Part shown: positions 25,902 through 57,767 of the stretch, in pieces | Layout of the letters: every line of letters starts with the position of its first letter | Numbering within the stretch: the first letter of the stretch is position 1 | Position numbers and translations under genes: made by a program | Notes under the pieces: model-generated | Database searches by the model: none | Told to the model about the DNA's origin: nothing | The model's input: only the letters and a program-made list of their open reading frames with translations | Assembly (NCBI GenBank): GCA_964432765.1 | Contig: CAYSOT010000002.1 | Span: 38,220-102,219 of the forward strand | From: an uncultured Candidatus Saccharibacteria bacterium | GTDB lineage: Bacteria > Patescibacteriota > SICC01 > CAYSOT01 | Length of the DNA stretch: 64,000 bases | Reading direction: 5' to 3'

Positions 25902-25909
25902 GAGAAACC

Positions 25910-30845: not shown

Positions 30846-30862
30846 CTACACTATAGAGGTTT

Positions 30863-37297: not shown

Positions 37298-39148
37298 ATG
37301 GCAAAACCTACGACCGGTTCAGGGCTCGACTATGGCATCATCGGTAATTGCGAAACCGCAGCCTTAGTCTCAAAAGAAGGAAGCATTGATTGGTTCTGCT
37401 TTCCGCGGTTCGACTCGCCTTCAGCATTCGGGAAACTTCTCGATGAAAAAATCGGGGGATTCTTTAGTCTGCGCCCGGTAGGCAAAAAGTGGTGGTCAAA
37501 ACAGGAATACATCGAAGACACTAATATTTTGCGCACCACGTTCGTCTCCGACGAAGCCGAAGTGCAGGTAACGGATTTTATGCCAATCTTTTCCGAGCCG
37601 TACCGCACAAGACCGCTACAGCGAATTTGCCGAACCGTTGAAGTTATTCGTGGCAAAGCCGACGTAGAGATGATTCTGATGCCAGCGTTTGACTATGCCC
37701 GCATCAAGCCAAAGTTTGAGTTTCGCAATGGAATCTGGCTTGCACGGGGAGAAGGCCAAACTTTTATACTTTCAGCGAGCGCGCCACTGGTTGACGCCTA
37801 CGAGGAAAAGCAGCAGCGCTTAGAAAAAGTATTCGACCTCAAAGAAGGTGAGCGCGTCGATATAGTCCTTGGCTACCGCAAGAATTTATTCGATGTTTCT
37901 CAGTTTGATGGTGTTGTCGATAATACCGAGCTGTACCAGAAGACGCTTCATTTCTGGAGACAGTGGCTCTGGAAGCTTGAGTACAACGGACCTCACCTCG
38001 ATGTTGTGAAGCGCTCGGCTCTTGCCCTGAAACTTCTTACCTATGCGCCAACTGGTGCCGTAGTGGCCGCTGCCACCACGAGTATTCCGGAAATGCCTGG
38101 TACGCCCAGAACGTGGGACTATCGCTACTGTTGGCTGCGCGATGCTTCATTTACGGTTGATGCACTTTTCCACGTTGGCCTGTATTCTGAAGCGCTCGCC
38201 TTCATGCACTGGGTACGCGAAACGATCACGGAGGCCGGTCCAGAAATTCAGATTATGTACAAAGTCGACGGCGCTGAGGAGATGACTGAGACTGAACTCG
38301 ACCACCTCGCGGGCTACCGTGATTCCAAACCGGTACGTATTGGTAACCGAGCGGCCAATCAGTTACAGCTTGATGCCTTTGGCGAGGTTATCGACGTGGC
38401 TGCAGTCGTGTTTGAGGAAAAGCACTACCTTAGCCCGGATATGTGGAACGTTATTTCAAATCTCGTCGAAGTGATATGTAAGTTCTGGCGCGAACCGGAC
38501 AATGGTATTTGGGAACTTCACGATGATAAATTCAAACTTAATTACACTTCATCAAAGGTCATGGCCTGGGTAGCTGTCGACCGTGGAGTACGGCTCGGCA
38601 GGCGCATGAAAGAAACTGATCGTGCTGATCGCTGGGAAAAGGTTCGTGACGAAATCAAAGATGACATTCTTACGCATGGCTGGAACGAGGAAAAGCAGAC
38701 TTTCACAATTGCCTACGAGCGTACCGAGCTCGACGCGGCCATTTTACATATGCCGCTGTTTGGCTTTATGGACGCCAAAGACCCAAAGATGATCGCTACT
38801 ACGAAGCGAATAATCGAGGAGCTCTCACGTGGCGACTTTATTCGTCGGTACAACATGGAAGATGACCAAGGTGAAACGGAAGCCACTATGCTTATCGTCA
38901 ATCTTTGGCTTGCGCAGGTTCTCGCGTTACAGGGCGAATATGATGATGCAAAACGACGCTTTGAGAATATCCTCGAACATGGAAATCATCTAAACCTCTT
39001 TTCAGAAAATCTAGACCCAAAATCGGGCGAGCTGACCGGCAACTTCCCTCAAGCCTACACTCATATCGCCATCATCAATACTGCTCTTCTACTAGAAGAG
39101 CTCAATCCCAAAAAGAAGAAGCCGAGCGTTTCGAAGAAAGCGCGCTAG
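37298..39148 (+). CDS. Glycoside hydrolase family 15 (glucoamylase / glucodextranase / trehalase-like).
   Basis: N-terminal YGIIGNCETAALVSKEGSIDWFCFPRFDSPSAF and central TTSIPEMPGTPRTWDYRYCWLRDASF are classical GH15 blocks. Length is 616 aa. Confidence 0.8.
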   Translation: MAKPTTGSGLDYGIIGNCETAALVSKEGSIDWFCFPRFDSPSAFGKLLDEKIGGFFSLRPVGKKWWSKQEYIEDTNILRTTFVSDEAEVQVTDFMPIFSEPYRTRPLQRICRTVEVIRGKADVEMILMPAFDYARIKPKFEFRNGIWLARGEGQTFILSASAPLVDAYEEKQQRLEKVFDLKEGERVDIVLGYRKNLFDVSQFDGVVDNTELYQKTLHFWRQWLWKLEYNGPHLDVVKRSALALKLLTYAPTGAVVAAATTSIPEMPGTPRTWDYRYCWLRDASFTVDALFHVGLYSEALAFMHWVRETITEAGPEIQIMYKVDGAEEMTETELDHLAGYRDSKPVRIGNRAANQLQLDAFGEVIDVAAVVFEEKHYLSPDMWNVISNLVEVICKFWREPDNGIWELHDDKFKLNYTSSKVMAWVAVDRGVRLGRRMKETDRADRWEKVRDEIKDDILTHGWNEEKQTFTIAYERTELDAAILHMPLFGFMDAKDPKMIATTKRIIEELSRGDFIRRYNMEDDQGETEATMLIVNLWLAQVLALQGEYDDAKRRFENILEHGNHLNLFSENLDPKSGELTGNFPQAYTHIAIINTALLLEELNPKKKKPSVSKKAR

Positions 39149-40134
39149 GCAAGGCCCATCTTCTGTTTCACAGATAGAAGAGTTTGTGTTGCCTGGGCTT
39201 CTGCTCTCTCTGCACCTGTCTTGAGAATCTGGTTCACTTCATCTGGGGCAGAAATTAGTCCTGTGATCCGCTCTCTAATAGGAGTGAGCGCTTCGATTAC
39301 CACATCAGCTAGAGCCTTCTTAAAATCACCATAACCCCTGGAGGCGTATTCTTCTGCGACATCTGCCGGAGTGCGGTCCTGCAGAAGAGCATAGATTGTC
39401 AGTAGATTCTTTATTGCTGGCTTCTCGTCTGAAAGCTCAATGGTTTCACCGGAGTCGGTTACGGCCTTGCGAATCTTTTTTGAAATTTCGTCGTTTGAAT
39501 CTGTTAAAGAAATAAAATTGTATTCGGACGCTGCGCTTTTTGACATCTTCTTGGTGGGGTCATCGAGCCCCATGATCCGCGCTCCCTCTTCTGCAATGAG
39601 TGGTTGTGGCACTATAAACGTCTCCCCGAAGCGGTTATTGAAACGCTCCGCTAAATCTCGCGTCAGCTCGACGTGTTGCTTTTGATCTGCCCCGACAGGA
39701 ACCACATCCGGCTGATACAGCACAATATCGGCGGCCATTAACGATGGATAGGTGAAAAGTCCGACCCCGACTGACTCTTCCTTGGCAGTGCCGCTCTTAT
39801 CTTTAAACTGTGTCATTCGACGAAGTTCGCCCATCGTCGTAAGCGTTGTCAGAATCCAGCCAAGTTCTGCATGTGCCGCTACATCAGACTGCCTGAAAAG
39901 GGTTGCCCTTTGCGGGTCGAGGCCACAGCCGAGATATGTCGCAGCAACACTGATGATATTCTTTCGTAGATTTTCGGGGGCTTGGGGGACTGTAATTGAA
40001 TGCAGGTCCGCAAGAAAATAGTAGGCATCATATTTGTCTTGAAGGTCTACAAATCTCCGAAGCGCTCCGAGATAATTCCCAAGATGGAGCGTGCCGGATG
40101 TTTGAATTCCTGAAAGGGCTCTCTGTTTGCTCAT
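39145..40134 (-). CDS. trpS: Tryptophanyl-tRNA synthetase.
   Basis: SGIQTSGTLHLGNYLGAL (HIGH region) and KMSKSAASE. The ORF track extends to 40176. The start at MSKQRALSGIQ (40134) is preferred. Confidence 0.9.
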   Translation of the reverse strand: MSKQRALSGIQTSGTLHLGNYLGALRRFVDLQDKYDAYYFLADLHSITVPQAPENLRKNIISVAATYLGCGLDPQRATLFRQSDVAAHAELGWILTTLTTMGELRRMTQFKDKSGTAKEESVGVGLFTYPSLMAADIVLYQPDVVPVGADQKQHVELTRDLAERFNNRFGETFIVPQPLIAEEGARIMGLDDPTKKMSKSAASEYNFISLTDSNDEISKKIRKAVTDSGETIELSDEKPAIKNLLTIYALLQDRTPADVAEEYASRGYGDFKKALADVVIEALTPIRERITGLISAPDEVNQILKTGAERAEAQATQTLLSVKQKMGLA

Positions 40135-40156: not shown

Positions 40157-41077
40157 GTGCAGGAAACCACGAGCAAAAACGATCGCTGGGCTGTAGTGGC
40201 AACACTTGCCTGGTTTGGCGTGCTTAAACGACCGCTTACTGTTGACGAGGTGTCGGAGTGCGCATTCGGGACAGCGATTTCTACAGACCAAGCTCAGAAA
40301 GAACTTACCGCACTCAATAAGCTTGCGAGAAACAAAAATGGATACTGGTCTCTGGCCGACCAAGAGGTCCGCTATGTCACCCCTCAGTCACGCGAACACT
40401 ACGAAAAAAAGTGGCACGTGGCGCTCCGAACAGCGCGAATATTACGACATCTGCCGTTCATTCGGATGGTTGCCGTCGCAAATACCGTAGCAGATGGAAG
40501 CGCTCGTAAAGACAGTGATATCGACGTTTTTATCGTTATTAAAGATGGCAGGCTTTTCCTGACACGCCTAATGATTACCGCCCTGCTGCACATTCTTCGC
40601 CTGAGACGGCACGGCAAATTTGTAGCGAATCGTATTTGTTTGTCGTTTTTTGTTACTGACGCGGCTCTAAATCTCAAATCGCTGGCAATAACTCCTTTTG
40701 ATATTTATCTGCTCTACTGGATCGCTGAACTTAGACCCGTTCTTGATAACGGAACATTCGAAAAATTTCGTCAATCGAACGAATGGGCTCTCCGGCGCTT
40801 TCCAGGACTGAAGCAGCAATACTCGCCTTGTAGGCCCTCTAGACTTTCTGGTTTTATGGAGTTTTTGCTTCGAGGAGCACTGGGCGAGCTCATCGAGAGA
40901 CCACTGCAACGCTGGCAGCTGCAACGAATCAAAAGTCGTCCGAAGAATCCAAATCCCGATGTAAAAATCGTAGCCTCTCCCAGGGTGCTTAAGTTTCACG
41001 AAAAAGATCGCCGAAGAATGTATCGCGAAGCATGGCGTGCGGAGATGCGTAAGCACAACCTAACGGATACCGTATAG
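40157..41077 (+). CDS. Nucleotidyltransferase-fold protein (Pol-beta superfamily-like GS...DxD motif), otherwise uncharacterised.
   Basis: IRMVAVANTVADGSARKDSDIDVFIV at residues ~95-120 resembles the GS-x(n)-DxD NTase motif of minimal or aminoglycoside-type nucleotidyltransferases. A 90-aa N-terminal extension precedes it. Only 22 nt of divergent space to trpS, so the start is uncertain. Confidence 0.5.
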   Translation: MQETTSKNDRWAVVATLAWFGVLKRPLTVDEVSECAFGTAISTDQAQKELTALNKLARNKNGYWSLADQEVRYVTPQSREHYEKKWHVALRTARILRHLPFIRMVAVANTVADGSARKDSDIDVFIVIKDGRLFLTRLMITALLHILRLRRHGKFVANRICLSFFVTDAALNLKSLAITPFDIYLLYWIAELRPVLDNGTFEKFRQSNEWALRRFPGLKQQYSPCRPSRLSGFMEFLLRGALGELIERPLQRWQLQRIKSRPKNPNPDVKIVASPRVLKFHEKDRRRMYREAWRAEMRKHNLTDTV

Positions 41078-41093
41078 ACATCTATATAGCTGC

Positions 41094-41780
41094 TTGCTAT
41101 TATTGGTCGTGTCTTTGCAATCTTTCTTGATTGACTGGTTCTTTCCCGCGAAATGTTTGGGTTGTGCGACTCCGCACACATGGTGGTGCCAACAATGTCA
41201 TACGAGGACCATTTGGTTTACGGCCTCTCGGTGCCAAGTCTGTCAGCGTCTGCAAGAATCTACGCGGTGCTGTTTGGCTTGTCGCAGAAAAACTGGGCTT
41301 AACGGGGTGGTCTCGGTTGGTCGGTATTCAAAAGCCCTACGGCAAGCTGTTACTTCACTCAAATTCCGTTCGTCCTATGCGGGCTGGGATTCTCTTTCCG
41401 TTGAGTGTATCGGTGCAATCCAAAAAATACCGTACACTACTGACTTAGTGCTTGTGCCGGTACCTCTTTCTGCAGAAAGAGTTCGCTTGCGCGGCTACAA
41501 CCAGGCAAAACATTTTGCCACGATGCTTTCAAGGTGGACTGGGTTGACGATGAATACCGGTCTAGAGCGAAGTCGCAACACACAGCCTCAGAGCAGCCTT
41601 GATCGAAGACACCGTCGAGAGAATGTTGTCGAGGCTTTTAGCTGGGACGGGGAGGTCCCAAAACAGGCGGTACTGGTCGACGATGTTGCAACAACCTTCA
41701 GCACTCTGAGCGAGTGCGCTGCTACACTTCGCCGCGCGGGGTGCTTGCACGTATGGGCAATAACGCTGGCGCGCGCCTAA
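41094..41780 (+). CDS. comFC: Competence protein ComFC (double zinc ribbon plus phosphoribosyltransferase fold).
   Basis: N-terminal CxxC...CxxC...CxxC...CxxC zinc ribbons (CLGCATPHTWWCQQC, CQVCQRL...CLAC). C-terminal PRTase loop VLVDDVATTFSTL. Confidence 0.75.
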   Translation: MLLLVVSLQSFLIDWFFPAKCLGCATPHTWWCQQCHTRTIWFTASRCQVCQRLQESTRCCLACRRKTGLNGVVSVGRYSKALRQAVTSLKFRSSYAGWDSLSVECIGAIQKIPYTTDLVLVPVPLSAERVRLRGYNQAKHFATMLSRWTGLTMNTGLERSRNTQPQSSLDRRHRRENVVEAFSWDGEVPKQAVLVDDVATTFSTLSECAATLRRAGCLHVWAITLARA

Positions 41781-43510
41781 TTAAAGCTTCGAGATATTGG
41801 GAATTTAGATTGCGGCAGATATGTCGAGCTAAAAATAGTGTCGATAGGCTCAGCACCACCGGTAACTACGTAGCGAAACGAGGCTGTGCCTCCGTCTTGC
41901 TCGGTCGCGTTGATTGAAACGATTTGTGTACTTGCCTGCCTGCCATCGTTCGTTCCATAGAAGTCGAAGGTTAAACTTTGTCCTACTTCGGCGGTTTGTA
42001 CCAGAATGTATTTTCCAGTGTTGTTGCGGAATTTCATGTCGGGACTTGGAGGATAAATTGTTGCATCCATACCAATTGGGGCATAGTAATGTACTGCGTA
42101 GGCGTGGTTCGTTCGTTCGGCGATCGGCAAGCCCGCGCTCATCGCAGCACGGAACATCGTAGTGGAAACCTGGCAAAGCCCCCCACCGTATTCGGGTACG
42201 GTTTTGTTCTCCTTAATCACAAGCTCTGGCAAGTAGCCGGTTTCCGGTCCAACATCACCGAGGACCTTGTTGAAGGAAAAAGTTTCGCCAGGTTTTATGA
42301 GAATTCCATTAAACTGCTTTGCGCCGACGCCGATGTTGTATGTTCGATTTACGGGACTTCCTCCAAAGTATGTCGTTGCCGTACCAATACGCGTGGTAAT
42401 TCCTAGTTGTGGCAACGTTTCTTGACGGATGTCTGCTTCCTTGCGCACAACCGGAAGTGTCACGGACCGCTCTGTCGACACAAAGCCTTTCCCCATTGCA
42501 CTAACGGCTCCTTTCCTGTCGATGACTGTCCCGTCTACGGCTGCGCCAGTAACGGCAAGCTGGTTGTTTTCGAAGCTCAAACGAGCATTTGTCGGGGGCT
42601 TGTCATACTCTGGTGCAATCTCCGCAACGTATGCGCCAAGTGCGATTTCATTCGGCACTGCATGCAGCGTGCGCACTCCGTCAGCAATTATCGGGGCTTC
42701 AGCTTGTCCAACTCCAAATAATTGATCAATGGTTCCGATAAGATCTTGGTCAACACTTTTTGGTAACTGGCCTGTGTCATGGCGCACGAATGTAACCCAT
42801 GAAGCTTTTTCGTCTGTTGATGGTTCCCGTCTGGCTTCGGCTATATTGATTACAAGAGGAAGGTTTGTTAGTTGCGCCGCGTAGCTTTTAGCCGAGCTTA
42901 GTGTCCTGGCTTGAATATCGGGTAGTTGCGGGCGAATGATGAGCGTACCGCTGGGTTTTAGGTCCTGTAACGCAAGCCTCAGCAACAACAGTGACGCAGG
43001 TGCATCTACCACTGTTCCACTTGCCTCCTGGGTAATGGTGAAGTCGGAACCGCTTCGCACAACGCTGGCATTTCTTGCCGGCTTGCTGAGTTGCTTTGTC
43101 TGCGCAGTAAGCCTGTCTACCGCCACGGCGTTGTTATAAATAACGACCGGCCTAACCGAGGTGGTGTGGAACGGAGAGATTAGAGACTGCCACAGCGCCT
43201 CGAGCGGTGAGCTCTTCCCCTGCCTAGTGGCAACAGCTGCGGTTTGCTGCACATCATATGAGAGACCAATATCCGATGCTTTCAGGGTAAAGTCTTTGCC
43301 TTCGTGCGTAAGGCTAACCTCCTGTATCGCGGCCGTCTTTGCAGTAAGGCGACTGACTATGTCGGCTTTCTTTTGCCCGCTGACGTCCATCCCCGCAACG
43401 CTAGTTCCCGGTAGCGCCCGGCCGTCATACAAGAACCAGACAGCAATGCAAAGTGCCATGACAGTACCGGCCACTACCGCGCATATCTGAAAGGCGCGGC
43501 GCGATGTCAT
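41777..43510 (-). CDS. VanW-family protein with an N-terminal membrane anchor.
   Basis: VanW domain signature PEYGGGLCQVSTTMFRAAM. The ORF track extends 46 aa upstream to 43648. The Met at MTSRRAF (43510) overlaps the stop of the upstream small gene as ATGA and precedes the TM helix. Confidence 0.8.
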   Translation of the reverse strand: MTSRRAFQICAVVAGTVMALCIAVWFLYDGRALPGTSVAGMDVSGQKKADIVSRLTAKTAAIQEVSLTHEGKDFTLKASDIGLSYDVQQTAAVATRQGKSSPLEALWQSLISPFHTTSVRPVVIYNNAVAVDRLTAQTKQLSKPARNASVVRSGSDFTITQEASGTVVDAPASLLLLRLALQDLKPSGTLIIRPQLPDIQARTLSSAKSYAAQLTNLPLVINIAEARREPSTDEKASWVTFVRHDTGQLPKSVDQDLIGTIDQLFGVGQAEAPIIADGVRTLHAVPNEIALGAYVAEIAPEYDKPPTNARLSFENNQLAVTGAAVDGTVIDRKGAVSAMGKGFVSTERSVTLPVVRKEADIRQETLPQLGITTRIGTATTYFGGSPVNRTYNIGVGAKQFNGILIKPGETFSFNKVLGDVGPETGYLPELVIKENKTVPEYGGGLCQVSTTMFRAAMSAGLPIAERTNHAYAVHYYAPIGMDATIYPPSPDMKFRNNTGKYILVQTAEVGQSLTFDFYGTNDGRQASTQIVSINATEQDGGTASFRYVVTGGAEPIDTIFSSTYLPQSKFPISRSFN

Positions 43511-43731
43511 GGGCGGCTCCCGAGAATCTCCGCCAAGATCGCTCGGGCCTGTAGGTGCCTCTCCTCGTTTTCGTCTTCCGTTGTCATCATTTTGAGAGCC
43601 ACGTCGTCGCCAACCCGAACACCATTTGGCACGGCTGAAGCAGGCCATGACATTTCATGACCTTGCACTGAAACAGTAACCCCTTCGTCGTTGATAGTTA
43701 AAATCCTGCCGTGAACTATTGTGTCACCCAT
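43507..43731 (-). CDS. DUF3006-like small protein of 74 aa.
   Basis: MGDTIVHGRILTINDEGVTVSVQGHEMSWPASAVPNGVRVGDDVAL follows the DUF3006 pattern (..fEgd.avve.edg.......LP.ga.eGDvL). Translationally coupled (ATGA) to the VanW gene. Confidence 0.5.
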   Translation of the reverse strand: MGDTIVHGRILTINDEGVTVSVQGHEMSWPASAVPNGVRVGDDVALKMMTTEDENEERHLQARAILAEILGSRP

Positions 43732-43782
43732 AGTGTATAAGGTTGATAACGTACAAGTATAGCCATCTAACCATTATTTGGG

Positions 43783-44904
43783 CTAGCGCTTGTGCCTAAG
43801 CGCTCGTTCATACACCACCAGCATCTTCTTCGCGGTCATCTGCCAGCTAAATTGTTTGACCCTTTCTGCGCCCTTCTCTATGAGCTGCTTACGGAGCCCC
43901 TTATCGACCAGGAGTGACTCTATGCCATTCACCATGTCTTCAGTTGAGCGAGGATTAAAATAGACAGCCGCATCACCCAGAATTTCTGGCATTGGTTCTG
44001 CACTTGAAGAAGCTACAGGAACACCTGCCGCAGTCGCCTCAAGCGGCGTAAAGCCGAAGCCCTCTGCCAGAGAGGGAAATGCGAACACTTCCGCGGCGTT
44101 GTAGTAATTCAACAGTTCATCATCTTCAACAAAATCCGTAAGAATCACGTTTTTTTCGAGTCCGAGATCGGAAATGGTTTGCGGAATTATGGGGAATGCG
44201 GGGTCGACCTTCCCCACCAAAACAAGTTTTAGGTCATGGTGGCGGCGTATTTGCTCAAATGCTTTCAGCAAACGAACCAGGTTCTTGTGCTGTCTCCATT
44301 GGCCTGCGTACATGATATATTTACTGCCATCGGTTTTCTGCTGACGAAATGCCTCTTTTTCAGCATTAGACATGTGCACCGCACTGAAGCGCTGATCTAT
44401 CCCGTTATAAACAACCCGGATTTTCGTCGGATCTGGATGAAAGCCTTCGATAATCAACCGCTTTTGATACTCAGAAATCGTCACAACTTCAATTGCTCTA
44501 CGAAACGCTGAGCGCAACACTGTGCGCATCACCGGAACCTTGGCAGCGGCTGCCCAGCTTTTTCCAGCATGACGAAGCAGCGTCAAATCGTGGATAGTGA
44601 TGACAAATGGACCCTTGTACAAAATGGGGTGATTAAAATTTGTGAAATGCATTAGGTCGACGCGGGCCTTATCGACTTCTCGCTTGAATAACAGCTGTTC
44701 TCTAACTGTATAGTGTTTGGTTTTAGTTTCGATCAGTTCGAATTTATCGTTTTTCGGAAACTGCTTTACATCTTCGGGGTGTATAAATACAACGAAAGTG
44801 TGCTCGTTTTGAAGTTTTCCGAGCTCGCTGAGCAGCTCTTGTGTGTACCTTGCCAGCCCAGCCGATCCTAATCCATAAAAACGTGCGTCGATTCCGATTC
44901 TCAT
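43783..44904 (-). CDS. Glycosyltransferase family 4 (GT-B).
   Basis: C-terminal EGFGFTPLEATAAGVPV motif (E-x7-E region) and N-terminal MRIGIDAR, typical of GT4. Confidence 0.8.
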   Translation of the reverse strand: MRIGIDARFYGLGSAGLARYTQELLSELGKLQNEHTFVVFIHPEDVKQFPKNDKFELIETKTKHYTVREQLLFKREVDKARVDLMHFTNFNHPILYKGPFVITIHDLTLLRHAGKSWAAAAKVPVMRTVLRSAFRRAIEVVTISEYQKRLIIEGFHPDPTKIRVVYNGIDQRFSAVHMSNAEKEAFRQQKTDGSKYIMYAGQWRQHKNLVRLLKAFEQIRRHHDLKLVLVGKVDPAFPIIPQTISDLGLEKNVILTDFVEDDELLNYYNAAEVFAFPSLAEGFGFTPLEATAAGVPVASSSAEPMPEILGDAAVYFNPRSTEDMVNGIESLLVDKGLRKQLIEKGAERVKQFSWQMTAKKMLVVYERALRHKR

Positions 44905-46124
44905 ACTCGCCCTTTCTCGCGAATCATGCCGAGCAGAAGAATGGTTGCAAAAAGCAGTGCTAGGTCGTTCTTAAGTATCGGCGTGTCTACAAGACCGTGA
45001 ACAATAATGGCCGTCATTGCCGCGGCGGCGGCAGCAGGAAAATAAGAGCTCCGTAGCGAGCGCGCAAAAACCGCGAGCAAGAATAGGAATGCTGCCAACG
45101 TCAGAACACCCCACTCAACCCACAACACAAGAAAAATGTTGTGCGGGTTGGGTGCAAACGGCGCAACATACTGCATGAGGTAGTTGTCGTCCTTAACCCT
45201 TCTGGTTACCGCGGCCTGGAACCCGGACGGACCATCGGCAAACACTGGATTTTCTTTTATGCTCTGCTCGGCCTGTTGCCAGAGAACTTTCCGAGTGGCG
45301 TGGGGATCATCTCGACCGACAAGCAACACTGAGAAAACACCAACAATGGTGACAAGTAACACAATTAGCAAAACTCTCAACTTAGGAGCTAACGCCTTCC
45401 AGCTAACAACGATGCCGACTGCCCCGCCTGCAGCAAGCGCGATGAGCCCTCCTCGCGATTGAGATCCAGCAAGCAGTCCAACCGATACAACGCAGCCCGC
45501 TATTCGTGCGAGCAAGAATTCACGTTTCGGCCAAAAAGCGAGGACTAACAAGATTGGCACCAGCAATAGAGCCAAAAAGTTCGCCGACTGGAATGGTCCA
45601 GCTAGTCGGTTGTCGTAGGTAAAGGCCGTCCCGTTAAAGACCGTTACCAATACCCAGGTCGATGTTGTTGCGACTGCTCCGAGCAGCCCCACAACAATTG
45701 CTCGAGGCGAGTAGTTCTTAAATATCGCACTAGCCACAACCAAAAACAAAGCTGGCTCTAGAAAGAAAGCTCGCCACAACCCAAATGCTGTGCGAACATC
45801 ACTGCTCACCAAGACAGCCAGCAATGACATTGTGAGCCATAGGCCGATTGCAACCGCATATGCGCGAGAGATTGAGACCTTTAGAGGTGAAAACGAGGCT
45901 CCCACTAGAAACGCCCACAACAAAATCTCAAGAAGTGTTGTTGGAACACCAAGCGACCCCCGAACTTGGTAGAGAGGAAGAGACGCCAGCACCACAATCA
46001 CCCCATAGTGCGGTCGTTTATATGAAAGGACTGCCGTAGCCATAGCCAGAAGACCAGCAAAGAGCCATGCAAAATTCCCACTTATGCTGACTGTTTGCTC
46101 TACGCCTAGAACGTGCTCAACCAC
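44901..46124 (-). CDS. O-antigen ligase / Wzy_C family polytopic membrane protein, copy 1 of 3.
   Basis: About 10-12 TM helices and a central SQSRGGLIALAAGG loop characteristic of the Wzy_C (O-antigen ligase/polymerase/O-OTase) domain. Confidence 0.7.
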   Translation of the reverse strand: MVEHVLGVEQTVSISGNFAWLFAGLLAMATAVLSYKRPHYGVIVVLASLPLYQVRGSLGVPTTLLEILLWAFLVGASFSPLKVSISRAYAVAIGLWLTMSLLAVLVSSDVRTAFGLWRAFFLEPALFLVVASAIFKNYSPRAIVVGLLGAVATTSTWVLVTVFNGTAFTYDNRLAGPFQSANFLALLLVPILLVLAFWPKREFLLARIAGCVVSVGLLAGSQSRGGLIALAAGGAVGIVVSWKALAPKLRVLLIVLLVTIVGVFSVLLVGRDDPHATRKVLWQQAEQSIKENPVFADGPSGFQAAVTRRVKDDNYLMQYVAPFAPNPHNIFLVLWVEWGVLTLAAFLFLLAVFARSLRSSYFPAAAAAAMTAIIVHGLVDTPILKNDLALLFATILLLGMIREKGRV

Positions 46125-47433
46125 GATTTCCTCCTTGCTGCTTAACGCCGAGCGTTACTGCAACCAGCGCTAACCACGGAGCAAGAATTAGTACATAGAG
46201 AACCGTGTTGTTAAGAAATGACCCGAACAGCCAGGCCACAGTGAAACACATTAGACCCGTGGCAACCCAACGGTAAGATGACAAGCTATCGCGAGACGCC
46301 CTCCAGAGTCGAACCAAAACAGTGCCCATAAAGAGCGTAAATGCGGCGAGTCCAATAATACCGGTTGTCGCCCAAATATTAAGTATTGAGCTGTCTGAAC
46401 CATTTGCCGAATGCTTTTCGAGACGATCACCTGCAGCAAGGTTTTCTTTCACGAGTGCTGCTCCATACGCATTGTAACCAACGCCGGTAATTAAGTGCGT
46501 CTTGGTTAGAGACCAAGCTTGCTGCAATGAATAAATCCGATTCGAGCCGCTTTCATCGCATTTTCCTCCTGTTTTTGCAGCGTCACATCGATATCCTTCT
46601 GGCTTATAGTTTTGTTGATTCGCGAGCTGCTTGGTTTCCGAGAATCGGTCGCTTAACCGTGAGGGAACAAAAAACGCCGCGATGAATATCAGTCCGACCA
46701 AGAGCGCCCAGCGCATGGACCTGAAAAAGACGAGCCCTGTTACGGCTATCGCTCCGACCACCCACGCACTTCGTGAGTATGTTAGGAACAAGGCTACCCA
46801 GGACACGCCAAACACCGCAGCATAAGGCCACGCCTGTCCACGATGGGCTGCAAACGCGCGACCCAAGGCAATACACATAACAAGTACCAAGAAAACACCA
46901 TAGAGGTTTGGATCGAAGAACGTCGAAAGCAGGCGGCCAATATGAGGATCCCAACCGTATCCGGTCATGAATATGAAATTTCCGACAAAAACCAACTGCC
47001 AAAACCCCAGCAGGACCGTAGCGGCCCCGACATATACGAATCCTTCGGTAAGGGCCTCGCGATACCTCTGAGAATCAAGCGCCAGAAGCGCGCCAAAGAT
47101 CACAATTGTTGCGAGCCTAAGCGCGTAAGCCCCGGCAGAGACGACTTCGTGGGAAGTGTAGTCGCCGCTATTAATTGCCAGTGCCAATACAGCCCAAGCG
47201 ACAAACCCAAAAAGTGATACCCACATGACATCACGGAAGATCGGGCGCGTTGATCGACGATCACGAATTAGCCAAAAGACCAGCGCTAGGCTGAGACTCG
47301 CAAGGGCCAGATCTATCAAAATCAACGATCCGCTGCTAGAACCAGCCGATACTCGAAATAACTGACCCGCTGCTACTGAGCCAAGAAATGCACCGGCAAC
47401 GAGCGATTGGCGTGAAATGCGAAGCCCAAACAT
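46117..47433 (-). CDS. O-antigen ligase / Wzy_C family membrane protein, copy 2 of 3.
   Basis: Polytopic, with YSRSAWVVGAIAVTG in the Wzy_C-type loop. An extra C-terminal periplasmic segment follows. Confidence 0.7.
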   Translation of the reverse strand: MFGLRISRQSLVAGAFLGSVAAGQLFRVSAGSSSGSLILIDLALASLSLALVFWLIRDRRSTRPIFRDVMWVSLFGFVAWAVLALAINSGDYTSHEVVSAGAYALRLATIVIFGALLALDSQRYREALTEGFVYVGAATVLLGFWQLVFVGNFIFMTGYGWDPHIGRLLSTFFDPNLYGVFLVLVMCIALGRAFAAHRGQAWPYAAVFGVSWVALFLTYSRSAWVVGAIAVTGLVFFRSMRWALLVGLIFIAAFFVPSRLSDRFSETKQLANQQNYKPEGYRCDAAKTGGKCDESGSNRIYSLQQAWSLTKTHLITGVGYNAYGAALVKENLAAGDRLEKHSANGSDSSILNIWATTGIIGLAAFTLFMGTVLVRLWRASRDSLSSYRWVATGLMCFTVAWLFGSFLNNTVLYVLILAPWLALVAVTLGVKQQGGNRG

Positions 47434-47451
47434 ACATCCATTCTAACCAAT

Positions 47452-48543
47452 TCAGCGCGCGGGAGGGGCGATAGACGCCAAGATCTCAACTATTTGCTTG
47501 GTAGCGCTATCCCACGAGAACTGAGCAGCGCGCTTTACGCCGGCCTTGCTAAGCACGCGCCTCTTTGTATCACTCTGCCATGTTTCATTCATCTTCGCTG
47601 CCAAGACTTTTATCTCGAGCGGTGAGGCAAATACGGCGCCATCGGCTGCTACTTCTCGCAGGGCTGGAATATCAGAACAAACTACGGGTGTTCCTGTTTG
47701 TAGTGCCTCGAGCACCGGTAGTCCAAATCCTTCGTAAAGACTGGGGTATACAAACATTCGTGCTGCTTGAAGCAATGAAACTATGTCCTCTTCAGGTACG
47801 TAATCAAGGTGTCGTATATCAAGCCCTCTATCCCGAGCCTTCTCAAGAGCGTTGATTACTGGTTCTGTTTCCCAACCGAGCTTTCCAACTATAACCAACG
47901 GTGCGCCGATACTCGCCATTTCGTACGCAGCGATGAGCCGTTCGTAGTTCTTTCGGGGCTCAATTGTTCCAAGCGACAAGACAAAATCTGTTGGTAGGTT
48001 GTACTTACTACAAATCTGGTTCGTGTCGTCTTTTTCACTAGCCGGCCTAAATTGCGGACCAGCCGCTAAGGGAACAACATGAACCTTCTCGCCCAGATCC
48101 TTTCCGTAGCGTGCAAGTAAGTCATTTTTTGTGGCCTCGGAATTAACGGCGATTGCAGCAGCATATTTAAGGGCTCTCCCGAGAGCAAGCCGTTCGATAA
48201 TTCGGGCACGGCGCTGTGGGGCAGCTTCTCTGCGAAAGGCGATTAAGTCATGCACAAATAGCAGTGTTGGTATACGCATGAATTGTGGGGTGAGGTAGCT
48301 CGTCGGTGCAAAATATACATCACAGTTTTTTAAAGCATCTCTCGCCACGTTTCGGTGCCAACGGAGGCTTCTCCCTGGTATAACCGTAAGACCACGCTCT
48401 GACTGCGCCGTATCAACATCAGCGTAATAGCGCAGCTTAAGCTCTGGATAATCAGACCGTAGGCGCGGCAGAATCTCTGCCGTCAAGCGTCCTTTGCCAG
48501 CTGGACGACCAAGTGTTTCTCGAACATCAACGCCGACGATCAT
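47452..48543 (-). CDS. Glycosyltransferase family 4.
   Basis: VYPSLYEGFGLPVLEALQTGTPVV. The ORF track extends 109 aa upstream to 48870. The Met at MIVGVDVRE (48543) matches GT4 N-termini and removes most of the overlap with the neighbour. Confidence 0.75.
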   Translation of the reverse strand: MIVGVDVRETLGRPAGKGRLTAEILPRLRSDYPELKLRYYADVDTAQSERGLTVIPGRSLRWHRNVARDALKNCDVYFAPTSYLTPQFMRIPTLLFVHDLIAFRREAAPQRRARIIERLALGRALKYAAAIAVNSEATKNDLLARYGKDLGEKVHVVPLAAGPQFRPASEKDDTNQICSKYNLPTDFVLSLGTIEPRKNYERLIAAYEMASIGAPLVIVGKLGWETEPVINALEKARDRGLDIRHLDYVPEEDIVSLLQAARMFVYPSLYEGFGLPVLEALQTGTPVVCSDIPALREVAADGAVFASPLEIKVLAAKMNETWQSDTKRRVLSKAGVKRAAQFSWDSATKQIVEILASIAPPAR

Positions 48544-49663
48544 GGTGTCTCTTTGCTCCTGCAGCGCGATAGGCTTCCAGGGTCTTTTGGGCCGTTTCGC
48601 GCCAGGTGAATTGTTTTGCCCGTTCGCGCCCCGCACTCGAAAGCCTTTGGCGAAGCGGTGCATCTTCAAGCAGTCTTCGCAATGCATTTCCAAGCGCTTC
48701 GGTATCTTCTGGATCAAAATAGAGAGCCGAGCCCCCACCAACCTCAGGAAGAGAGGCGGCACTCGAGGCAAGCACGGGCGCGCCCGAAGCCATTGCCTCC
48801 AGAATAGGAATTCCAAATCCTTCGTAATGGCTAGGAAAGACAAACGTTTTTGCACCTGCGTAGAGCGCACGCAGGTCGCGATCGGAAACGGCGCCGGTTA
48901 AAATCACTCGCGAACCAAGTCCTAGTTTTTCAAGGAGCTGTCTTGTTTCATCAAATAGCCACCCTTGGTTCCCCACAACGACTAATTGTTCTGTGGTGTG
49001 ACGCCTAATGGCAGCAAATGCGAGCAGGAGGGTTCTGAGGTTTTTCCGTGGCTCAAGCGTTCCGACAGATAGTAGGTATTCACCGTCGATTGAATAGGTG
49101 TCCTTAACTCGGGAAATATCCTCCGGAGCAACCGGCTCAAAAAACCTCTCTCCACAGCCAAGCGGCGTAGTGACAATCTTTTCTTTCTCTCTCGGAAAAT
49201 GCTCTGCGATTGCTTCTGCCGTAAATTCCGAAACGGCAAGTATCTTGCTTGCGGCTCGCAAGGTTTCGGGCACAAACTTCGTTAAATAATCGAGGTTCTT
49301 AGGTTCGACATAATCAGGGTGCTCGATAAAGGTTAGGTCATGCACCGTCACCACAAATGGCTGTTTAGTTGGGGGTGCCACGTAGTTCGTAAAGTGCCAA
49401 ACGTCTGGCTTTGGCCGCATCCAGTCAAGCGGTGGGGCACCAAATGTCTTCCAGGATAGTTGCCAGGCTCGGCGATACCACCCGCCAAACGGATCAACAT
49501 GCGAATTCGTAGTCCCTACATCAAGTGGCGATCCCCAAAAGTGAAACATGTCCTCCTGGTCAATCGCCAAGAGGGCTTTTGCCAGTGATTCAATGTAGGT
49601 CTTCGTCCCACCAGTTGCTGGGTACTCTACCCAGCGCGTGTCGATCGCGTATGTTGCTGCCAT
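48527..49663 (-). CDS. Glycosyltransferase family 4.
   Basis: FVFPSHYEGFGIPILEAMASGAPVL. Confidence 0.8.
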   Translation of the reverse strand: MAATYAIDTRWVEYPATGGTKTYIESLAKALLAIDQEDMFHFWGSPLDVGTTNSHVDPFGGWYRRAWQLSWKTFGAPPLDWMRPKPDVWHFTNYVAPPTKQPFVVTVHDLTFIEHPDYVEPKNLDYLTKFVPETLRAASKILAVSEFTAEAIAEHFPREKEKIVTTPLGCGERFFEPVAPEDISRVKDTYSIDGEYLLSVGTLEPRKNLRTLLLAFAAIRRHTTEQLVVVGNQGWLFDETRQLLEKLGLGSRVILTGAVSDRDLRALYAGAKTFVFPSHYEGFGIPILEAMASGAPVLASSAASLPEVGGGSALYFDPEDTEALGNALRRLLEDAPLRQRLSSAGRERAKQFTWRETAQKTLEAYRAAGAKRHHDRRR

Positions 49664-49674
49664 ATAGTCCTATT

Positions 49675-50826
49675 CTACGCGACGATTCGCTCAAGCAGCT
49701 CATCAAAACGATTGGCGGTGGCTTGCCATGTCCAATGGCCCATCGTCTTTCGTCCCTGTTTTCCGAGTTGTGCCCTTAGTTTTGCATTGTCGATCAATTT
49801 TTCTAACGCACTGGCAAATGCTCCTTCATCGCGCTCAACCAAAAATCCTGTGCTGCCATCGACTACTGTTTCTGCTAAGCCACCTTCGTTGACGGCCACA
49901 ACCGGCGCCTCGGAAGCCATCGCTTCGAGTGCAACTAAGCCAAGAGGCTCTTCATATTGCGCGGCTGCAAAAATCATTGCCCTGCCATAGAGGTCAGTAA
50001 TCTCAGAAAATGGAATTGCTTGCCTAAGATCAAGTTCCACATCAGCCAAAACGGCAAGCGATTCAAGGTGTTGGCCGTAGTCTCCCCGGTCGCCGACCAC
50101 AACCAGTCTGGGGCGTTTCGATCGAGGAATTCGCGCCAGAGCAGCTATCACGAACTGGTGACCCTTTGCAGGATGAAGCGCCCCGACCGAGAGGACAAAA
50201 TTATCTCGCTTCTTGGCGGGTGTGAATGTCGCTGAATCAACACCTCCGTAAACAACCTCTGAGGAGACTCCGTAAATTCGCCTTAGGTTCGCCTGAGTAA
50301 AATGAGAAGTAGTCGATACAAGCGAAGCCGCGCGGATTGAAGCGAGGTCAAATTTGCGCCTTCGTATATTGAGCGGCTTTGTAGCGATTTTTTTGAGTCG
50401 GTCTTTTGCCGAGACCATAGCTTGTTTGTCATACACTTCTCGAAGATATTCGGGAGCAAAGTAGAGCGTTGGAATTGTGATGTGTTTTAGTGGTTCAGGA
50501 GCTTGGGTTACCTGGCTAGCATGAAGAAAAGCGGCGTCAAACCCCCCGTTATTAATCTGATTAGCAATCTCTTTAGCAACACCCGAAACGGCCGCGAACT
50601 GCCTGTACCGAGACGCGAGCGAGGTTGCCGATGGAAGAAAAGTTGAGATCCTATCAGCTCTCTTTAAGAGCGATTGATCGAGACTAGCTGCGGTGGTAGG
50701 TGTGAATAGGGTAATTTCGTGCCCAGCCGTCGTGTGTCGAAGGTATTCTTCCAGTAAACGTAGTGCGCCTCCACTTGGAAGGTTGTGGTAAAGAGCGAGC
50801 TTCATGAGGTTCTCCCCGTGTGCCAA
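49675..50826 (-). CDS. Glycosyltransferase family 4.
   Basis: EEPLGLVALEAMASEAPVVAVNEGGLAETVVDGSTGFLV. Confidence 0.8.
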   Translation of the reverse strand: MAHGENLMKLALYHNLPSGGALRLLEEYLRHTTAGHEITLFTPTTAASLDQSLLKRADRISTFLPSATSLASRYRQFAAVSGVAKEIANQINNGGFDAAFLHASQVTQAPEPLKHITIPTLYFAPEYLREVYDKQAMVSAKDRLKKIATKPLNIRRRKFDLASIRAASLVSTTSHFTQANLRRIYGVSSEVVYGGVDSATFTPAKKRDNFVLSVGALHPAKGHQFVIAALARIPRSKRPRLVVVGDRGDYGQHLESLAVLADVELDLRQAIPFSEITDLYGRAMIFAAAQYEEPLGLVALEAMASEAPVVAVNEGGLAETVVDGSTGFLVERDEGAFASALEKLIDNAKLRAQLGKQGRKTMGHWTWQATANRFDELLERIVA

Positions 50827-51776
50827 TCGAGAACTTGCTTATATAGCGTGCGCTGATTGCGGGCTGCACGAGCTAAACTACCCCGCCTATACCGAGCGCT
50901 TATCCTTGTGGGCAACAGCAGGAGCGTTGCGAGCCCGACTATCAGGATAGAACCAGCGCAGGCTATCGCCTTTTGTACCTTTACGTAGAAAGGACCGTGA
51001 TATTTTCCGTAAAACGCGTACAGGCTCGGAAAATAGTGTGAAAATCTCTTGGTCAGAGTGCCTGCCTTGTCGACACTACCACCCCAGTGGTGAATGACTT
51101 CCAATTCCGGCAGATACCTAATTTTGTACCCGGCTCGCCTGACACGCAGATTAAAATCGGTTTCTTCTAGAAAAAAGAAGAACCTTTCATCGAGCGTTCC
51201 GATCTCTGTAAGCAAACTACTACGGAACGCGAGGCAGGCTCCAATTGCATCGCCGACAGATTGAGGATGTGCCATTTCGGAGGGTGTAAGCAACAGTTTC
51301 CCGGGATACCTTTTGCGGGGAAACAATCGATAGAGCAGCCGGTTGAGCAGTGTGTACTCATAGAGTGAGGTCAAAATTGTCGGCTCAGTCCAAGCAACAG
51401 AAGCCTGCACTTCGCCCTGCCCGTTGATCAGCCGTGGCGCGACGATACCAACTTCCGGATGCTGCACAAGGTAGACACCTAGAGACTCTAGGGTGGTCTT
51501 TGAGGGAAGCTCTGTGTCGCTATTGAGCATAACGACAACATCTCCTGAGATTCGCTCAAATGCCTGGTTGTTTGCAGCAGCAAAGCCTAGATTGTCATCG
51601 TTTTTTATCAAAATGACACCCTTGTAGTCTCGCTCTACCAATTCCGGGCTTCCGTCCTGCGAGCCATTGTCGACAACGATTATTTCTGGCTCAGGGGTTT
51701 GGGCAAGAACGGTTTCGAGACATGCACGAAGTAGCTCTTTGGTGTTGTAAGAAACAATAACAACAGATGTTTTCAT
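50802..51776 (-). CDS. Glycosyltransferase family 2.
   Basis: N-terminal VVIVSYNTKELLRACLETVL...IIVVDNGSQDGS, a GT-A DxD-type start. Confidence 0.8.
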   Translation of the reverse strand: MKTSVVIVSYNTKELLRACLETVLAQTPEPEIIVVDNGSQDGSPELVERDYKGVILIKNDDNLGFAAANNQAFERISGDVVVMLNSDTELPSKTTLESLGVYLVQHPEVGIVAPRLINGQGEVQASVAWTEPTILTSLYEYTLLNRLLYRLFPRKRYPGKLLLTPSEMAHPQSVGDAIGACLAFRSSLLTEIGTLDERFFFFLEETDFNLRVRRAGYKIRYLPELEVIHHWGGSVDKAGTLTKRFSHYFPSLYAFYGKYHGPFYVKVQKAIACAGSILIVGLATLLLLPTRISARYRRGSLARAARNQRTLYKQVLDWHTGRTS

Positions 51777-52921
51777 GCGTTTTCATAGATGTGGCGCAGC
51801 TTCGATGCAAGGGCAGCTGCGCTTCTGGTCTGCTCCATTGTAGCTCGAGCCGCCTGACCAAGCGATGCGCGAAGCCTCTTGTCGCGCATTAGGTGCGAAA
51901 GCTCGTCAGCCAGCGCTTGAGCGTTGCCAGCAGGAAACTCGAGTGCTGTTTTTCCAACAACAATGTCTTGGCGAAGTGACGGCACGTTTGAGCAGATCGT
52001 TGGGGTGCCGCTACTTAGCGCACGGATCAACATTCCGCTGGCCGCACCTCCGAGCTGTGGCTCGTACGGCAAAACAGCAACACTGCTCTCACAAAATGTT
52101 CTCAGCAACTCTTCTTCTGAAAGATATCCTGGCAACTCAACATCGGTGGCGATTCCCAATTGATCAAGCTGAGCTAGAAGTGGCTTCTGGCCATACTGGG
52201 GGTCCTTTCCAACAATATGCAGCTTGAGAGCTTGGCCGGGCTGCTGCATGCGTAGGAGGCGGAATGCCTCAAGTAACGTCTCGAGTCCTTTATGTGGCCC
52301 TATAAAACCGGCGAAAAGTATGTGAAAAGCGTCATCTCGCTCTCTACGTTTTCCACTTGGAAACGCCACATGTGGTACCACCTGGGATCCTGAGATACCC
52401 CATACTTCTTCCAAGTCCCTTCTGCCCCGTAGGCCAAGCACGATGGGCGTTGCAGCCCTGAGAAGGCGTCTGCGTTGAGCTCTGCCATAGTGCTCATCCA
52501 AGATGCGTCGCGCTATTCTGATTGGGCGAGGCTTTGTCTCAAGATTCAAATAGCGATAGGGTCTGTGGACTATTTCGCGGGGCTCGTGCAGCGTCACCAC
52601 AAGCGGTACTTGGGCATAACGTCTTAGTGCTTGGGCATAGAAATATTCACGGTACGTGGCGTGGGCAAGCTCCAGATGAACCAATGAGTACTGTTTGTAG
52701 CGTCCGGTGCGAGTTTCATGGCGCACGTTTCTCCAAATGTCGCGAACTTCTTGCTTGCTTGGCATGCTGACTGGAAAAAATTGATTATCAAAATCGCAGA
52801 CCTCGGAGATGACTTTCCGAAATTGAATTGCGTAGTCAGCAATGCCTCCCTCTTCCCCGGGCCTTGGAGCTACATAGAGAACTTTTTTCACTCGACCTCT
52901 TTGATGAGTCGCGACTTCCAC
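51773..52921 (-). CDS. Glycosyltransferase family 4.
   Basis: GT-B C-terminal domain with LPYEPQLGGAASGMLIRALSSGTPTICS. Confidence 0.75.
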   Translation of the reverse strand: MEVATHQRGRVKKVLYVAPRPGEEGGIADYAIQFRKVISEVCDFDNQFFPVSMPSKQEVRDIWRNVRHETRTGRYKQYSLVHLELAHATYREYFYAQALRRYAQVPLVVTLHEPREIVHRPYRYLNLETKPRPIRIARRILDEHYGRAQRRRLLRAATPIVLGLRGRRDLEEVWGISGSQVVPHVAFPSGKRRERDDAFHILFAGFIGPHKGLETLLEAFRLLRMQQPGQALKLHIVGKDPQYGQKPLLAQLDQLGIATDVELPGYLSEEELLRTFCESSVAVLPYEPQLGGAASGMLIRALSSGTPTICSNVPSLRQDIVVGKTALEFPAGNAQALADELSHLMRDKRLRASLGQAARATMEQTRSAAALASKLRHIYENA

Positions 52922-53874
52922 GGATAGCCGCGGCGAAGCAGTTTTCTAAACTCAGCGGCGGTAATCTTTCTGGTTTTAGCGACCTGGTGGTGCGCCACGA
53001 TGGTGCGCGGCCACGCGATGATAAACGAACCTAGCCCACGCAGATATGCCCATCCGTTCCCGTTTCTAACTTGATGCAACGCAAACCGCGCCTGATGAAA
53101 CAGTAATTTTGGAAAAAGTTTTATCATTGTGGTGTACGGCAGGTTTTTCCAAAGCAACACAAGCTGATTTCTGGTCATATTTCGAACTGTAAATGGCGAA
53201 GTTCTGCCCGACGTGCCTGCTCCAACGTGATACACCTTTGCTTTGGCTGCGAGATAGCCGCGGTATCCAGCCAAATGAGCACGCAGGCACAGATCAGCAT
53301 CCTCGTAATAAAAATAGTATCGTTCGTCCAGGCCGCCCAGAGCCTTCCAGACAGTCCTTGGCACTAGTAATGCGCCCCCGCAACCGATTAGCACCGGAGC
53401 ATCATCTTCAAATTGCCCCTCATCGATGGTGTCCTTTCCGCGAGGATAGTCGACTCCATATTCGTAAAGGTCCTTCCCTGCTTCATCGATCAGCTCACGA
53501 TTGTCGTAGTGGAGCATCTTTGTGGCCACGAAACCTAAGTCCTGCCTTGAATCTGCGAGCAATGTCAGCTCCTTAAGCCAACTTGTGTCTGCCTCGATGT
53601 CATTGTTGAGAAGCGCCAAGTATTTTCCGTTTGCACCTGCTGCAGCGATATTTACAGCCTTGGCGAAACCTTCGTTGCGCGGCAGGGCTATGGTGCGAAC
53701 GTTTGGCCATTTCTTTAAAAACACAAGTGAATCGTCTTCCGAACCATTGTCTATGACGATCGTCTCAAAATCCTGAAAAGTTTGGTTCTTGAGCGAAGGC
53801 AGCACTATTTCCAGAAATTTTCGCCCGTTCCAGTTCGGAATGATAACGCTTACTTTCGGCGCAGCATGTTCCAT
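52888..53874 (-). CDS. Glycosyltransferase family 2.
   Basis: VSVIIPNWNGRKFLEIVLPSL...IVIDNGSEDDS. Confidence 0.8.
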   Translation of the reverse strand: MEHAAPKVSVIIPNWNGRKFLEIVLPSLKNQTFQDFETIVIDNGSEDDSLVFLKKWPNVRTIALPRNEGFAKAVNIAAAGANGKYLALLNNDIEADTSWLKELTLLADSRQDLGFVATKMLHYDNRELIDEAGKDLYEYGVDYPRGKDTIDEGQFEDDAPVLIGCGGALLVPRTVWKALGGLDERYYFYYEDADLCLRAHLAGYRGYLAAKAKVYHVGAGTSGRTSPFTVRNMTRNQLVLLWKNLPYTTMIKLFPKLLFHQARFALHQVRNGNGWAYLRGLGSFIIAWPRTIVAHHQVAKTRKITAAEFRKLLRRGYPWKSRLIKEVE

Positions 53875-55885: not shown

Positions 55886-55904
55886 CGTCTTAATTGTTTC
55901 AGGA

Positions 55905-57766: not shown

Positions 57767-57767
57767 T

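Follow-up and report, generated by a model that had tools for sequence, protein, structure and literature searches.

Comparison with described nucleotidyltransferases

A gene coding for a protein of 306 residues (positions 40157..41077, plus strand) has been analysed in a stretch of 64,000 nucleotides from the genome of an uncultured Candidatus Saccharibacteria bacterium (contig CAYSOT010000002.1). This whole stretch is referred to as the window, and positions are counted from its first letter. The product is predicted to adopt a nucleotidyltransferase (NTase) fold and represents a family essentially confined to the Patescibacteria, the bacteria of the candidate phyla radiation (CPR). In many of the loci examined the gene precedes, on the same strand, a gene for a membrane protein of the Wzy_C family. 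An original prediction, made from the letters alone, had described the protein as an uncharacterised NTase and placed it beside the competence gene comFC.

The described proteins with which the family can be compared include the antibiotic-modifying NTases. Kanamycin NTase ANT(4') (6nlt/1kny) and LinB share 12% sequence identity with the window protein, and about 130 residues superpose. Unlike these enzymes, the window protein has N-T in the place of G-S, a C-terminal domain of its own that carries the motif L-K-F-H-x2-D-R-R, and an additional winged helix at the N-terminus. The genes of the family are situated among housekeeping genes and not in a resistance or mobile context.

Another class of related proteins comprises GlnE, DrrA (SidM) and MNT/MntA. 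In contrast to them, the family has neither the G-[GS] motif nor a HEPN partner nor a known protein target, and the score of the window protein against the MntA model lies far under the cutoff. The MntA type VII toxin-antitoxin systems consist of a small MNT protein of about 100-140 residues and an adjacent HEPN gene, whereas the window protein has 306 residues and its neighbours are trpS and comF. Elsewhere in the family the neighbours are Wzy_C, UvrC or Der, which is again unlike the MNT-HEPN pairs. Compared with the minimal NTases described by the NTP_transf_2 and Polbeta models of about 93 positions, the window protein has three times their length and carries additional domains at both ends.

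The LicD/fukutin-type phosphotransferases are proteins of NTase fold that act in Wzy-dependent teichoic-acid and capsule pathways, where they decorate lipid-linked repeat units. A likeness of the present family to this class would be one of logic: a putative cytoplasmic protein of NTase fold with a DxD site, whose genes lie beside those of Wzy-type membrane proteins and glycosyltransferases.

Predicted fold and domain architecture

The open reading frame (ORF) at 40157..41077 begins with GTG and contains the peptide IRMVAVANTVADGSARKDSDIDVFIV quoted in the original prediction. It is a real gene and not a chance ORF, because it has 53 homologues (E down to 1e-145), because a profile search yields 6,476 matches and because of the way in which differences are distributed over its codons. 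Against an orthologue of 72% identity, 76, 49 and 178 differences fall at codon positions 1, 2 and 3, and the codons that differ comprise 127 synonymous and 86 non-synonymous ones, a pattern that fits a constrained coding sequence. No transmembrane segment is predicted in the product, the maximum Kyte-Doolittle value over a 19-residue window being 1.51.

An AlphaFold2 model of the protein, built from 44 family members, is very confident, with a predicted local distance difference test (pLDDT) value of 93.7 and a predicted template modelling (pTM) score of 0.91. The model has an N-terminal winged helix (residues ~4-66; 40166..40354, plus strand), a long helix (76-96), a strand (102-108), a short helix (109-113) and a second strand (122-128), followed by one more helix, a third core strand (160-167) and a mostly helical C-terminal region. 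The strand-helix-strand portion of the NTase core (residues 100-128; 40454..40540, plus strand) has been delimited from this secondary structure, from conservation and from alignments. The model thereby contains the alpha-beta-alpha-beta-alpha-beta core with mixed sheet that is typical of Pol-beta-type enzymes, and is structurally similar to known NTases. In the model the segment that the original prediction had singled out, a GS followed by a DxD within a beta pattern, forms the strand-helix-strand of an NTase with D121-x-D123 opening the second core strand, in agreement with the fold proposed there. The "90-residue N-terminal extension" described in the same place proves to be of two parts: an extra domain is indeed present in the form of the winged helix, and the remainder is the long first helix (76-96) of the NTase domain itself.

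Comparison of the model with known structures gives the highest value for kanamycin NTase ANT(4') (9.0), followed by DrrA (8.0), the Sulfolobus minimal NTase (7.2), GlnE (7.2 and 7.1), LinB (7.2), MNT (6.9) and AAD(9) (6.6). ANT(6)/AadK (2pbe), to which the protein had originally been likened, is not the closest structure; with a value of 4.7 against 9.0 for kanamycin NTase it stands below the other NTases compared. About 130-143 of 237 residues superpose on the known NTases at identities of 10-15%, and the longest structural alignments are those with DrrA and GlnE. A Foldseek search of the model against the PDB gave no match at E <= 1e-3.

Sequence searches point in the same direction at low scores. 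Single-sequence and profile searches of the PDB retrieved only the minimal NTase 1wot (E 0.011 and 0.042) and DrrA (E 1.6). The window protein scores 16.1 bits against Pfam NTP_transf_2 (gathering cutoff 21) and 17.1 bits against Polbeta (cutoff 26.9), so that both matches remain under their gathering cutoffs. Among the 44 members, weak matches to NTP_transf_2 (PF01909) are found in 30 and to Polbeta (PF18765) in 16, with best E-values of 3.6e-4 and 2.7e-4. These are the sole Pfam families matched by the 44 proteins, and the matches span the strand-helix-strand motif. Scans of the 306-residue protein against Pfam, NCBIfam and PADLOC gave sub-threshold matches to the NTase motif only. The assignment of the modelled protein to the Pol-beta superfamily fold is well supported; membership of any described NTase family is not supported.

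The winged helix is probably a structural or interaction module and not a DNA reader, since its recognition helix is variable, its net charge is negative and short forms exist without it. No part of the protein varies more than the segment of the third (recognition) helix, which has an entropy of 3.2 bits and a length of 4-35 residues, and a conserved basic recognition helix, looked for in this domain across the family, is not present. The median net charge of the domain in the family is -2. A clade of short forms of about 238 residues is devoid of the domain, which is hence dispensable. The catalytic part of the protein is strongly basic: its net charge is +20 in the window protein, and the mean over the family is +10.

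Conserved residues of the putative active site

Conservation has been computed on 194 divergent sequences of the family drawn from the profile search, and the percentages below refer to this set. D121 and D123 are present in 100% of the sequences and form the D121-I-D123-V motif with which the second core strand (122-128) opens. Where the first strand passes into the helix, NTases carry the h-G-[GS] motif. This motif is absent from the family; the site is held by N109 (99%), followed at position 110 by T, N or S (57%, 22% and 10%), and in the window protein N109-T110 is separated from D121 by ten residues. Three independent alignments agree in this register: one to 1wot by HMMER, one of the family profile to DrrA, and one to kanamycin NTase by hhalign. 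The last was made with a sequence identical to 6un8_A and aligns only the strand-helix-strand motif, at a probability of 2.2%, so that it serves for the register only and does not place the third carboxylate.

The GS-x5-DxD motif noted in the original prediction is literally present in the window protein, and its DxD is the invariant metal pair. Its GS (G114-S115) is incidental and off-register: G114 is conserved in 30% and S115 in 11% of the sequences, and the x5 spacing is shorter than the canonical x9-13.

The third core strand has the sequence R-I-C-L-S-F-F-V (160-167) and contains the conserved motif C161-L162-S163-F164 (40637..40648, plus strand), with 100%, 99%, 97% and 98% conservation respectively. 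No conserved acidic residue is found in this strand, where canonical NTases carry the third carboxylate. D182 (99%), located in the next element past the third strand, might substitute for it. N208, K279, H281 and R286 are each conserved at 100%. The last three belong to the C-terminal signature L-K-F-H-E-K-D-R-R (residues 278-286; 40988..41014, plus strand), whose family form is L-K-F-H-x2-D-R-R. The conservation pattern argues for a working, non-canonical active site rather than a decayed one, because ten polar residues (N109, D121, D123, C161, S163, D182, N208, K279, H281 and R286) are retained at 97-100%.

Distribution of the family

A profile search covering 1.84 billion cluster representatives (50%-identity clusters) identified 6,476 representatives at E <= 1e-3 and 3,061 at E <= 1e-30. 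Nearly all of the proteins are 300-340 residues long. The protein was rightly called uncharacterised: no Pfam or NCBIfam model exists for the family, no database entry of the homologues carries a Pfam domain, and the entries are named "hypothetical protein" and, in two cases, "predicted nucleotidyltransferase". No description of the family was found in the literature searched, which included a paper on Saccharibacteria genetics (PMC10633639) and the Lipocone preprint.

A strict motif scan with the C-terminal signature pattern, in which one genome per species was considered, yielded 409 loci, and 80 of these have been examined for genomic context. They represent Saccharimonadia, Magasanikbacteria, Buchananbacteria, Parcubacteria, Peregrinibacteria, Gracilibacteria and other metagenome-assembled genomes (MAGs) of Patescibacteria. 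A single copy of the gene is encoded in the window and at each examined locus. CPR-type loci with the gene order of Patescibacteria bins are also encountered in MAGs labelled as Gammaproteobacteria or Nitrospirota (L015, L020, L028, L047, L056, L059, L060, L062, L067, L079 and L081, together with L029, L052 and L055). These look like mislabelled or contaminated bins and not like a true occurrence beyond the CPR.

Single fusions with other domains are found in P0104 (496 residues) and P0143 (503 residues), which involve a C-terminal NUDIX hydrolase domain and an N-terminal GGACT/AIG2-like domain, one each. A nucleoside-diphosphate-linked substrate or product would be in keeping with the NUDIX fusion.

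Association with Wzy_C membrane proteins

The neighbours of the gene have been mapped at all the examined loci and ordered by the tree of the NTases. In 37 of the 80 loci the NTase gene is followed on the same strand by a Wzy_C gene, usually with GroES and GroEL next in order, and Wzy_C is never found upstream or on the opposite strand. The gap between the two genes is 100 nucleotides or less in 28 of the 37 loci, six of which show an exact overlap of 4 nucleotides. The order is kept whichever gene lies upstream (YidC-PRC, UvrA, RmuC or an M23/LTD peptidase), and it survives the insertion of a DUF559 or DUF2238-like gene between the pair. The DUF559 (endonuclease-like) insert occurs in two unrelated MAGs (L033:869-1264 and L070:4963-5343, plus strand), and in Buchananbacteria-type loci the insert site is occupied by a DUF2238-like membrane protein (e.g. 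L014:4926-5564).

The two proteins are also found fused. P0121, of 797 residues, is an in-frame fusion of NTase and Wzy_C with a linker of about 30 residues, in which the N-terminal LFLLPWQT motif of the partner is retained. A frameshift artefact was considered for this protein and rejected, as the sequence contains zero Ns, is read in a single clean frame and has a linker that is absent from the unfused pairs. In a Buchananbacteria MAG (L072:4930-7227, plus strand) the Wzy_C gene, which overlaps the NTase gene by 4 nucleotides, encodes a protein of 765 residues with a radical-SAM/SPASM domain fused at its C-terminus.

The remaining loci show other arrangements. In 28 of the 80, which are Peregrinibacteria/Gracilibacteria-like and include many short forms, the gene lies between a divergent UvrC and a convergent Der. 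Five loci have the NTase followed by GroES and GroEL without Wzy_C, and in another five the contig ends or the neighbours could not be assigned. The last five are Saccharimonadia-like: trpS is divergent, comF follows the NTase on the same strand, and VanW and a family 4 glycosyltransferase (GT4) converge on the pair, an order common to three further loci and the window. Where the sequence extends far enough, a Wzy_C gene is encountered beyond GT4 on that same converging strand.

The adjacency of comF is restricted to this Saccharimonadia-like clade (window, L001, L009-L013 and L089-L091), and comF is absent from the 37 loci with downstream Wzy_C. The link to comFC suggested in the original prediction is not supported: the pair is kept within the clade and not in the other Patescibacteria among the 80 loci. 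Because the pair is limited to the Saccharimonadia-like clade while Wzy_C lies downstream elsewhere, the position beside comF reflects synteny specific to one lineage and is no evidence for a role in DNA uptake.

In the window the NTase and comF genes adjoin an envelope-glycan gene cluster of about 20 kb, which lies on the minus strand (41777..58502, continuing to 62537), has been recognised by Pfam scans and converges on them. The gene for the best window orthologue of the operonic Wzy_C partner (59977..61284, minus strand), located 19 kb from the NTase gene, heads the cluster at its other end. It scores 197 bits against a hidden Markov model of the operonic Wzy_C partners and matches the partner in L005 with a BLASTP E-value of 2e-17. 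Two further Wzy_C genes revealed by Pfam scans (44901-46124 and 46117-47433, minus strand) score 54 and 32 bits against the same model and have been rejected as partners of the NTase. In the window lineage the NTase gene has thus moved from its usual slot before Wzy_C, yet it still borders the same envelope-glycan region.

The cluster also encodes a VanW/PG_binding_4 protein, a 74-residue ORF, a GT4 glycosyltransferase, at least seven further glycosyltransferases of the GT1 and GT2 types, two methyltransferases and, at 55905-59057 (minus strand), RmlA/B/C/D-like proteins for dTDP-rhamnose. The presence of three Wzy_C paralogues within one cluster is unusual for a genome so small. The Wzy_C gene at its head is followed in coordinate order by a jag/khpB-like KH/R3H gene of 148 codons (61286-61732, minus strand; Jag-related PDB matches) and by yidC (61734-62537, minus strand; Pfam YidC). 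In other lineages the NTase gene is situated between a small PRC-like gene and Wzy_C, and the equivalent slot in the window is "empty". The 148-residue ORF between yidC and Wzy_C was considered as a PRC-like gene or a remnant of the NTase and rejected on account of its Jag/KhpB-like nature.

Proposed role and alternative explanations

We lean, tentatively and at somewhat less than an even chance, towards a cytoplasmic metal-dependent nucleotidyl- or phospho-transferase that acts with a Wzy_C-type membrane protein in the assembly of envelope glycoconjugates. In this view the protein, which comprises the winged helix, the Pol-beta NTase core and a helical C-terminal region specific to the family, would be soluble and cytoplasmic. 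A nucleotide-linked donor, either a nucleoside triphosphate or a CDP- or other nucleoside-diphosphate-linked group, would be bound through D121 and D123 together with the invariant basic residues R137, R150, K279 and R286. The nucleotidyl or phospho-linked group could then be passed, on the cytoplasmic side of the membrane, to an acceptor hydroxyl, and the NTase would work jointly with the Wzy_C protein (O-antigen ligase/polymerase-like) on an envelope glycoconjugate. The hints for the Wzy_C link are its same-strand downstream position in 37 of the 80 loci, the overlaps, the persistence of the order, the fusion, and the orthologue that heads the cluster of the window.

Several observations weigh against this proposal. 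The fusion of NTase and Wzy_C is known from one contig only. The two genes are not adjacent in the 28 Peregrinibacteria/Gracilibacteria-like loci, nor in the clade of the window itself. The pair is contained within a wider block that continues with GroES and GroEL, and the adjacency may partly be inherited gene order, because the NTase stays beside GroES when Wzy_C is absent, as it does in the five loci mentioned above and in L007. The missing G-[GS] motif and the missing acidic residue of the third strand could indicate non-canonical chemistry or no catalysis. The LicD family of Pfam (PF04991) is matched by none of the 44 members at E <= 1, so that the analogy to LicD is one of logic only. 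The donor, the acceptor and even the catalytic competence are putative. Less probable is a variant of the proposal in which the protein is a core envelope-biogenesis enzyme specific to the Patescibacteria with a new chemistry, acting on a lipid-linked glycan, a lipid carrier or the Wzy_C-type ligase. The remodelled site would then consist of the asparagine in place of glycine, the cysteine of the third strand and the histidine, lysine and arginine supplied by the family-specific C-terminal domain.

Two other enzymatic activities have been considered, both of them unlikely. The family could comprise protein nucleotidylyltransferases (AMPylases or uridylylases) like GlnE, GlnD, DrrA or MntA, serving as a switch on tyrosine, serine or threonine residues of Wzy_C or of a housekeeping protein. 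DrrA and 1wot show a matching S-D-[IL]-D signature in the same register, the longest structural alignments are those already mentioned with DrrA and GlnE, and a winged helix unlike a DNA reader could serve in protein docking; however, no candidate target is available and the G-[GS] of DrrA, GlnE and MNT is replaced in the family. The probability is similarly low for an NTase directed to nucleic acids, which would extend DNA or RNA ends in connection with DNA uptake, repair or RNA metabolism. Many polymerases and tailing enzymes belong to the superfamily, the window protein has a very basic catalytic part (+20), and the neighbours include, depending on the clade, ComF (Saccharimonadia-like), UvrA, a divergent UvrC and RmuC, the last on the same strand and overlapping. 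UvrC, UvrA and RmuC share single loci (L005 and L092), which points to one ancestral block and not to independent associations. Moreover, the protein has neither the acidic residue of the third strand nor G-[GS], the winged helix is acidic on average with an unconserved recognition helix, and an activity on nucleic acids leaves the Wzy_C fusion and the 4-nucleotide overlaps unexplained.

Of still lower probability is a non-catalytic scaffold, or a winged-helix transcription factor with an NTase-like domain as ligand sensor. The loss of the canonical G-[GS] and third-strand acidic residue and the presence of an N-terminal winged helix would agree with such a protein. The conservation of D121, D123 and eight other polar residues across thousands of lineages is hard to explain in the absence of a binding or catalytic site, and the winged helix is dispensable, has its least conserved segment in the recognition helix and is negatively charged on average. 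The two remaining possibilities, the first of them raised in the original prediction, are very improbable. An antibiotic-modifying NTase of the aminoglycoside or lincosamide type is disfavoured by the low identity, by a structural alignment (about 130 of 237 residues) that covers essentially the common core, and by the aminoglycoside-NTase families of Pfam, which are matched by 0 of the 44 members. In hundreds of genomes of environmental Patescibacteria the gene occupies a conserved site next to housekeeping genes, while a resistance gene would be patchy and mobile. A role in a toxin-antitoxin or anti-phage system (MNT/HEPN, CBASS-like or Hailong-like) finds some support in a weak similarity to MNT antitoxins and HalB and in a match to PADLOC PDC-S09, which at E 0.003 is the best of the PADLOC matches and sub-threshold. 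With 11.8 bits the protein stays under the 60-bit cutoff of the MntA model of NCBIfam (NF047752), a scan of the nearest genes on either side in about 65 of the 80 loci gave no HEPN or effector neighbour, and the gene is of single copy in the window and at each examined locus, and of syntenic position.

Neighbouring genes in the window

The immediate surroundings of the NTase gene agree with the original prediction, which had a co-oriented comF gene downstream and a divergent trpS start 22 nucleotides away. The trpS gene (39145..40134, minus strand), for tryptophanyl-tRNA synthetase, matches PF00579 with an E-value of 1e-74. Its ATG at 40134 is separated by 22 nucleotides from the GTG of the NTase gene, and gene callers position both genes alike, with the same spacing, on two other contigs, of which one is identical and one 72% identical.

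The downstream gene encodes a ComF-family protein of 223 residues when read from GTG (41109..41780, plus strand). The mechanical ORF starts at TTG 41094, which is 16 nucleotides past the NTase stop; on the identical and related contigs the gene callers have the gene begin 31 nucleotides past it, matching the GTG at 41109. The close spacing on one strand that had been described is therefore correct, and the distance of 17 nucleotides is to be replaced by 16 or 31 depending on the start. The product matches the TIGR00201 comF model with an E-value of 1.3e-28 and 100 bits, under the trusted cutoff of 233.55 bits, the double zinc ribbon DZR_2 with 24.9 bits (cutoff 27), and Pribosyltran weakly. 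Its architecture, a predicted zinc ribbon and a phosphoribosyltransferase-type domain, fits ComF/ComFC at scores under the trusted cutoffs.

The stops of comF and of the convergent VanW/PG_binding_4 gene (minus strand) overlap by 4 nucleotides (41777-41780) and leave no space for terminators; the same overlap is called on the related contigs L089 and L090. Rfam and tRNA scans gave no match within or near the NTase gene, and a promoter and terminator scan gave nothing above shuffled expectation. Five tRNA genes (three Ser and two Arg) are encoded within 8.5 kb at 22478-30952 and none near the NTase gene. Large ORFs of the window with no Pfam match at E <= 1e-3 are those at 27250-30588 (1,112 residues), 31588-32709, 24829-25407 and 26498-27148, all on the plus strand.

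Significance of the family

The window gene is not to be taken as an antibiotic-resistance or a competence gene. It belongs to an unnamed family of about 6,500 clusters, near-invariant at ten polar residues and conserved in its genomic position, which constitutes a distinct variant within the NTase superfamily. The Patescibacteria account for a large part of bacterial diversity and have tiny genomes, in which most of the conserved genes are expected to matter. Saccharibacteria are now genetically tractable, and a testable gene pair is available in them. The recurrent coupling of the NTase with a Wzy_C subfamily that is distinct points to an uncharted step in building the surface that mediates the epibiotic lifestyle. 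If the less probable variant with a new chemistry is true, the NTase/Wzy_C pair would represent a step of surface assembly, made of two components and hitherto unrecognised, in bacteria that are ultra-small and depend on a host.

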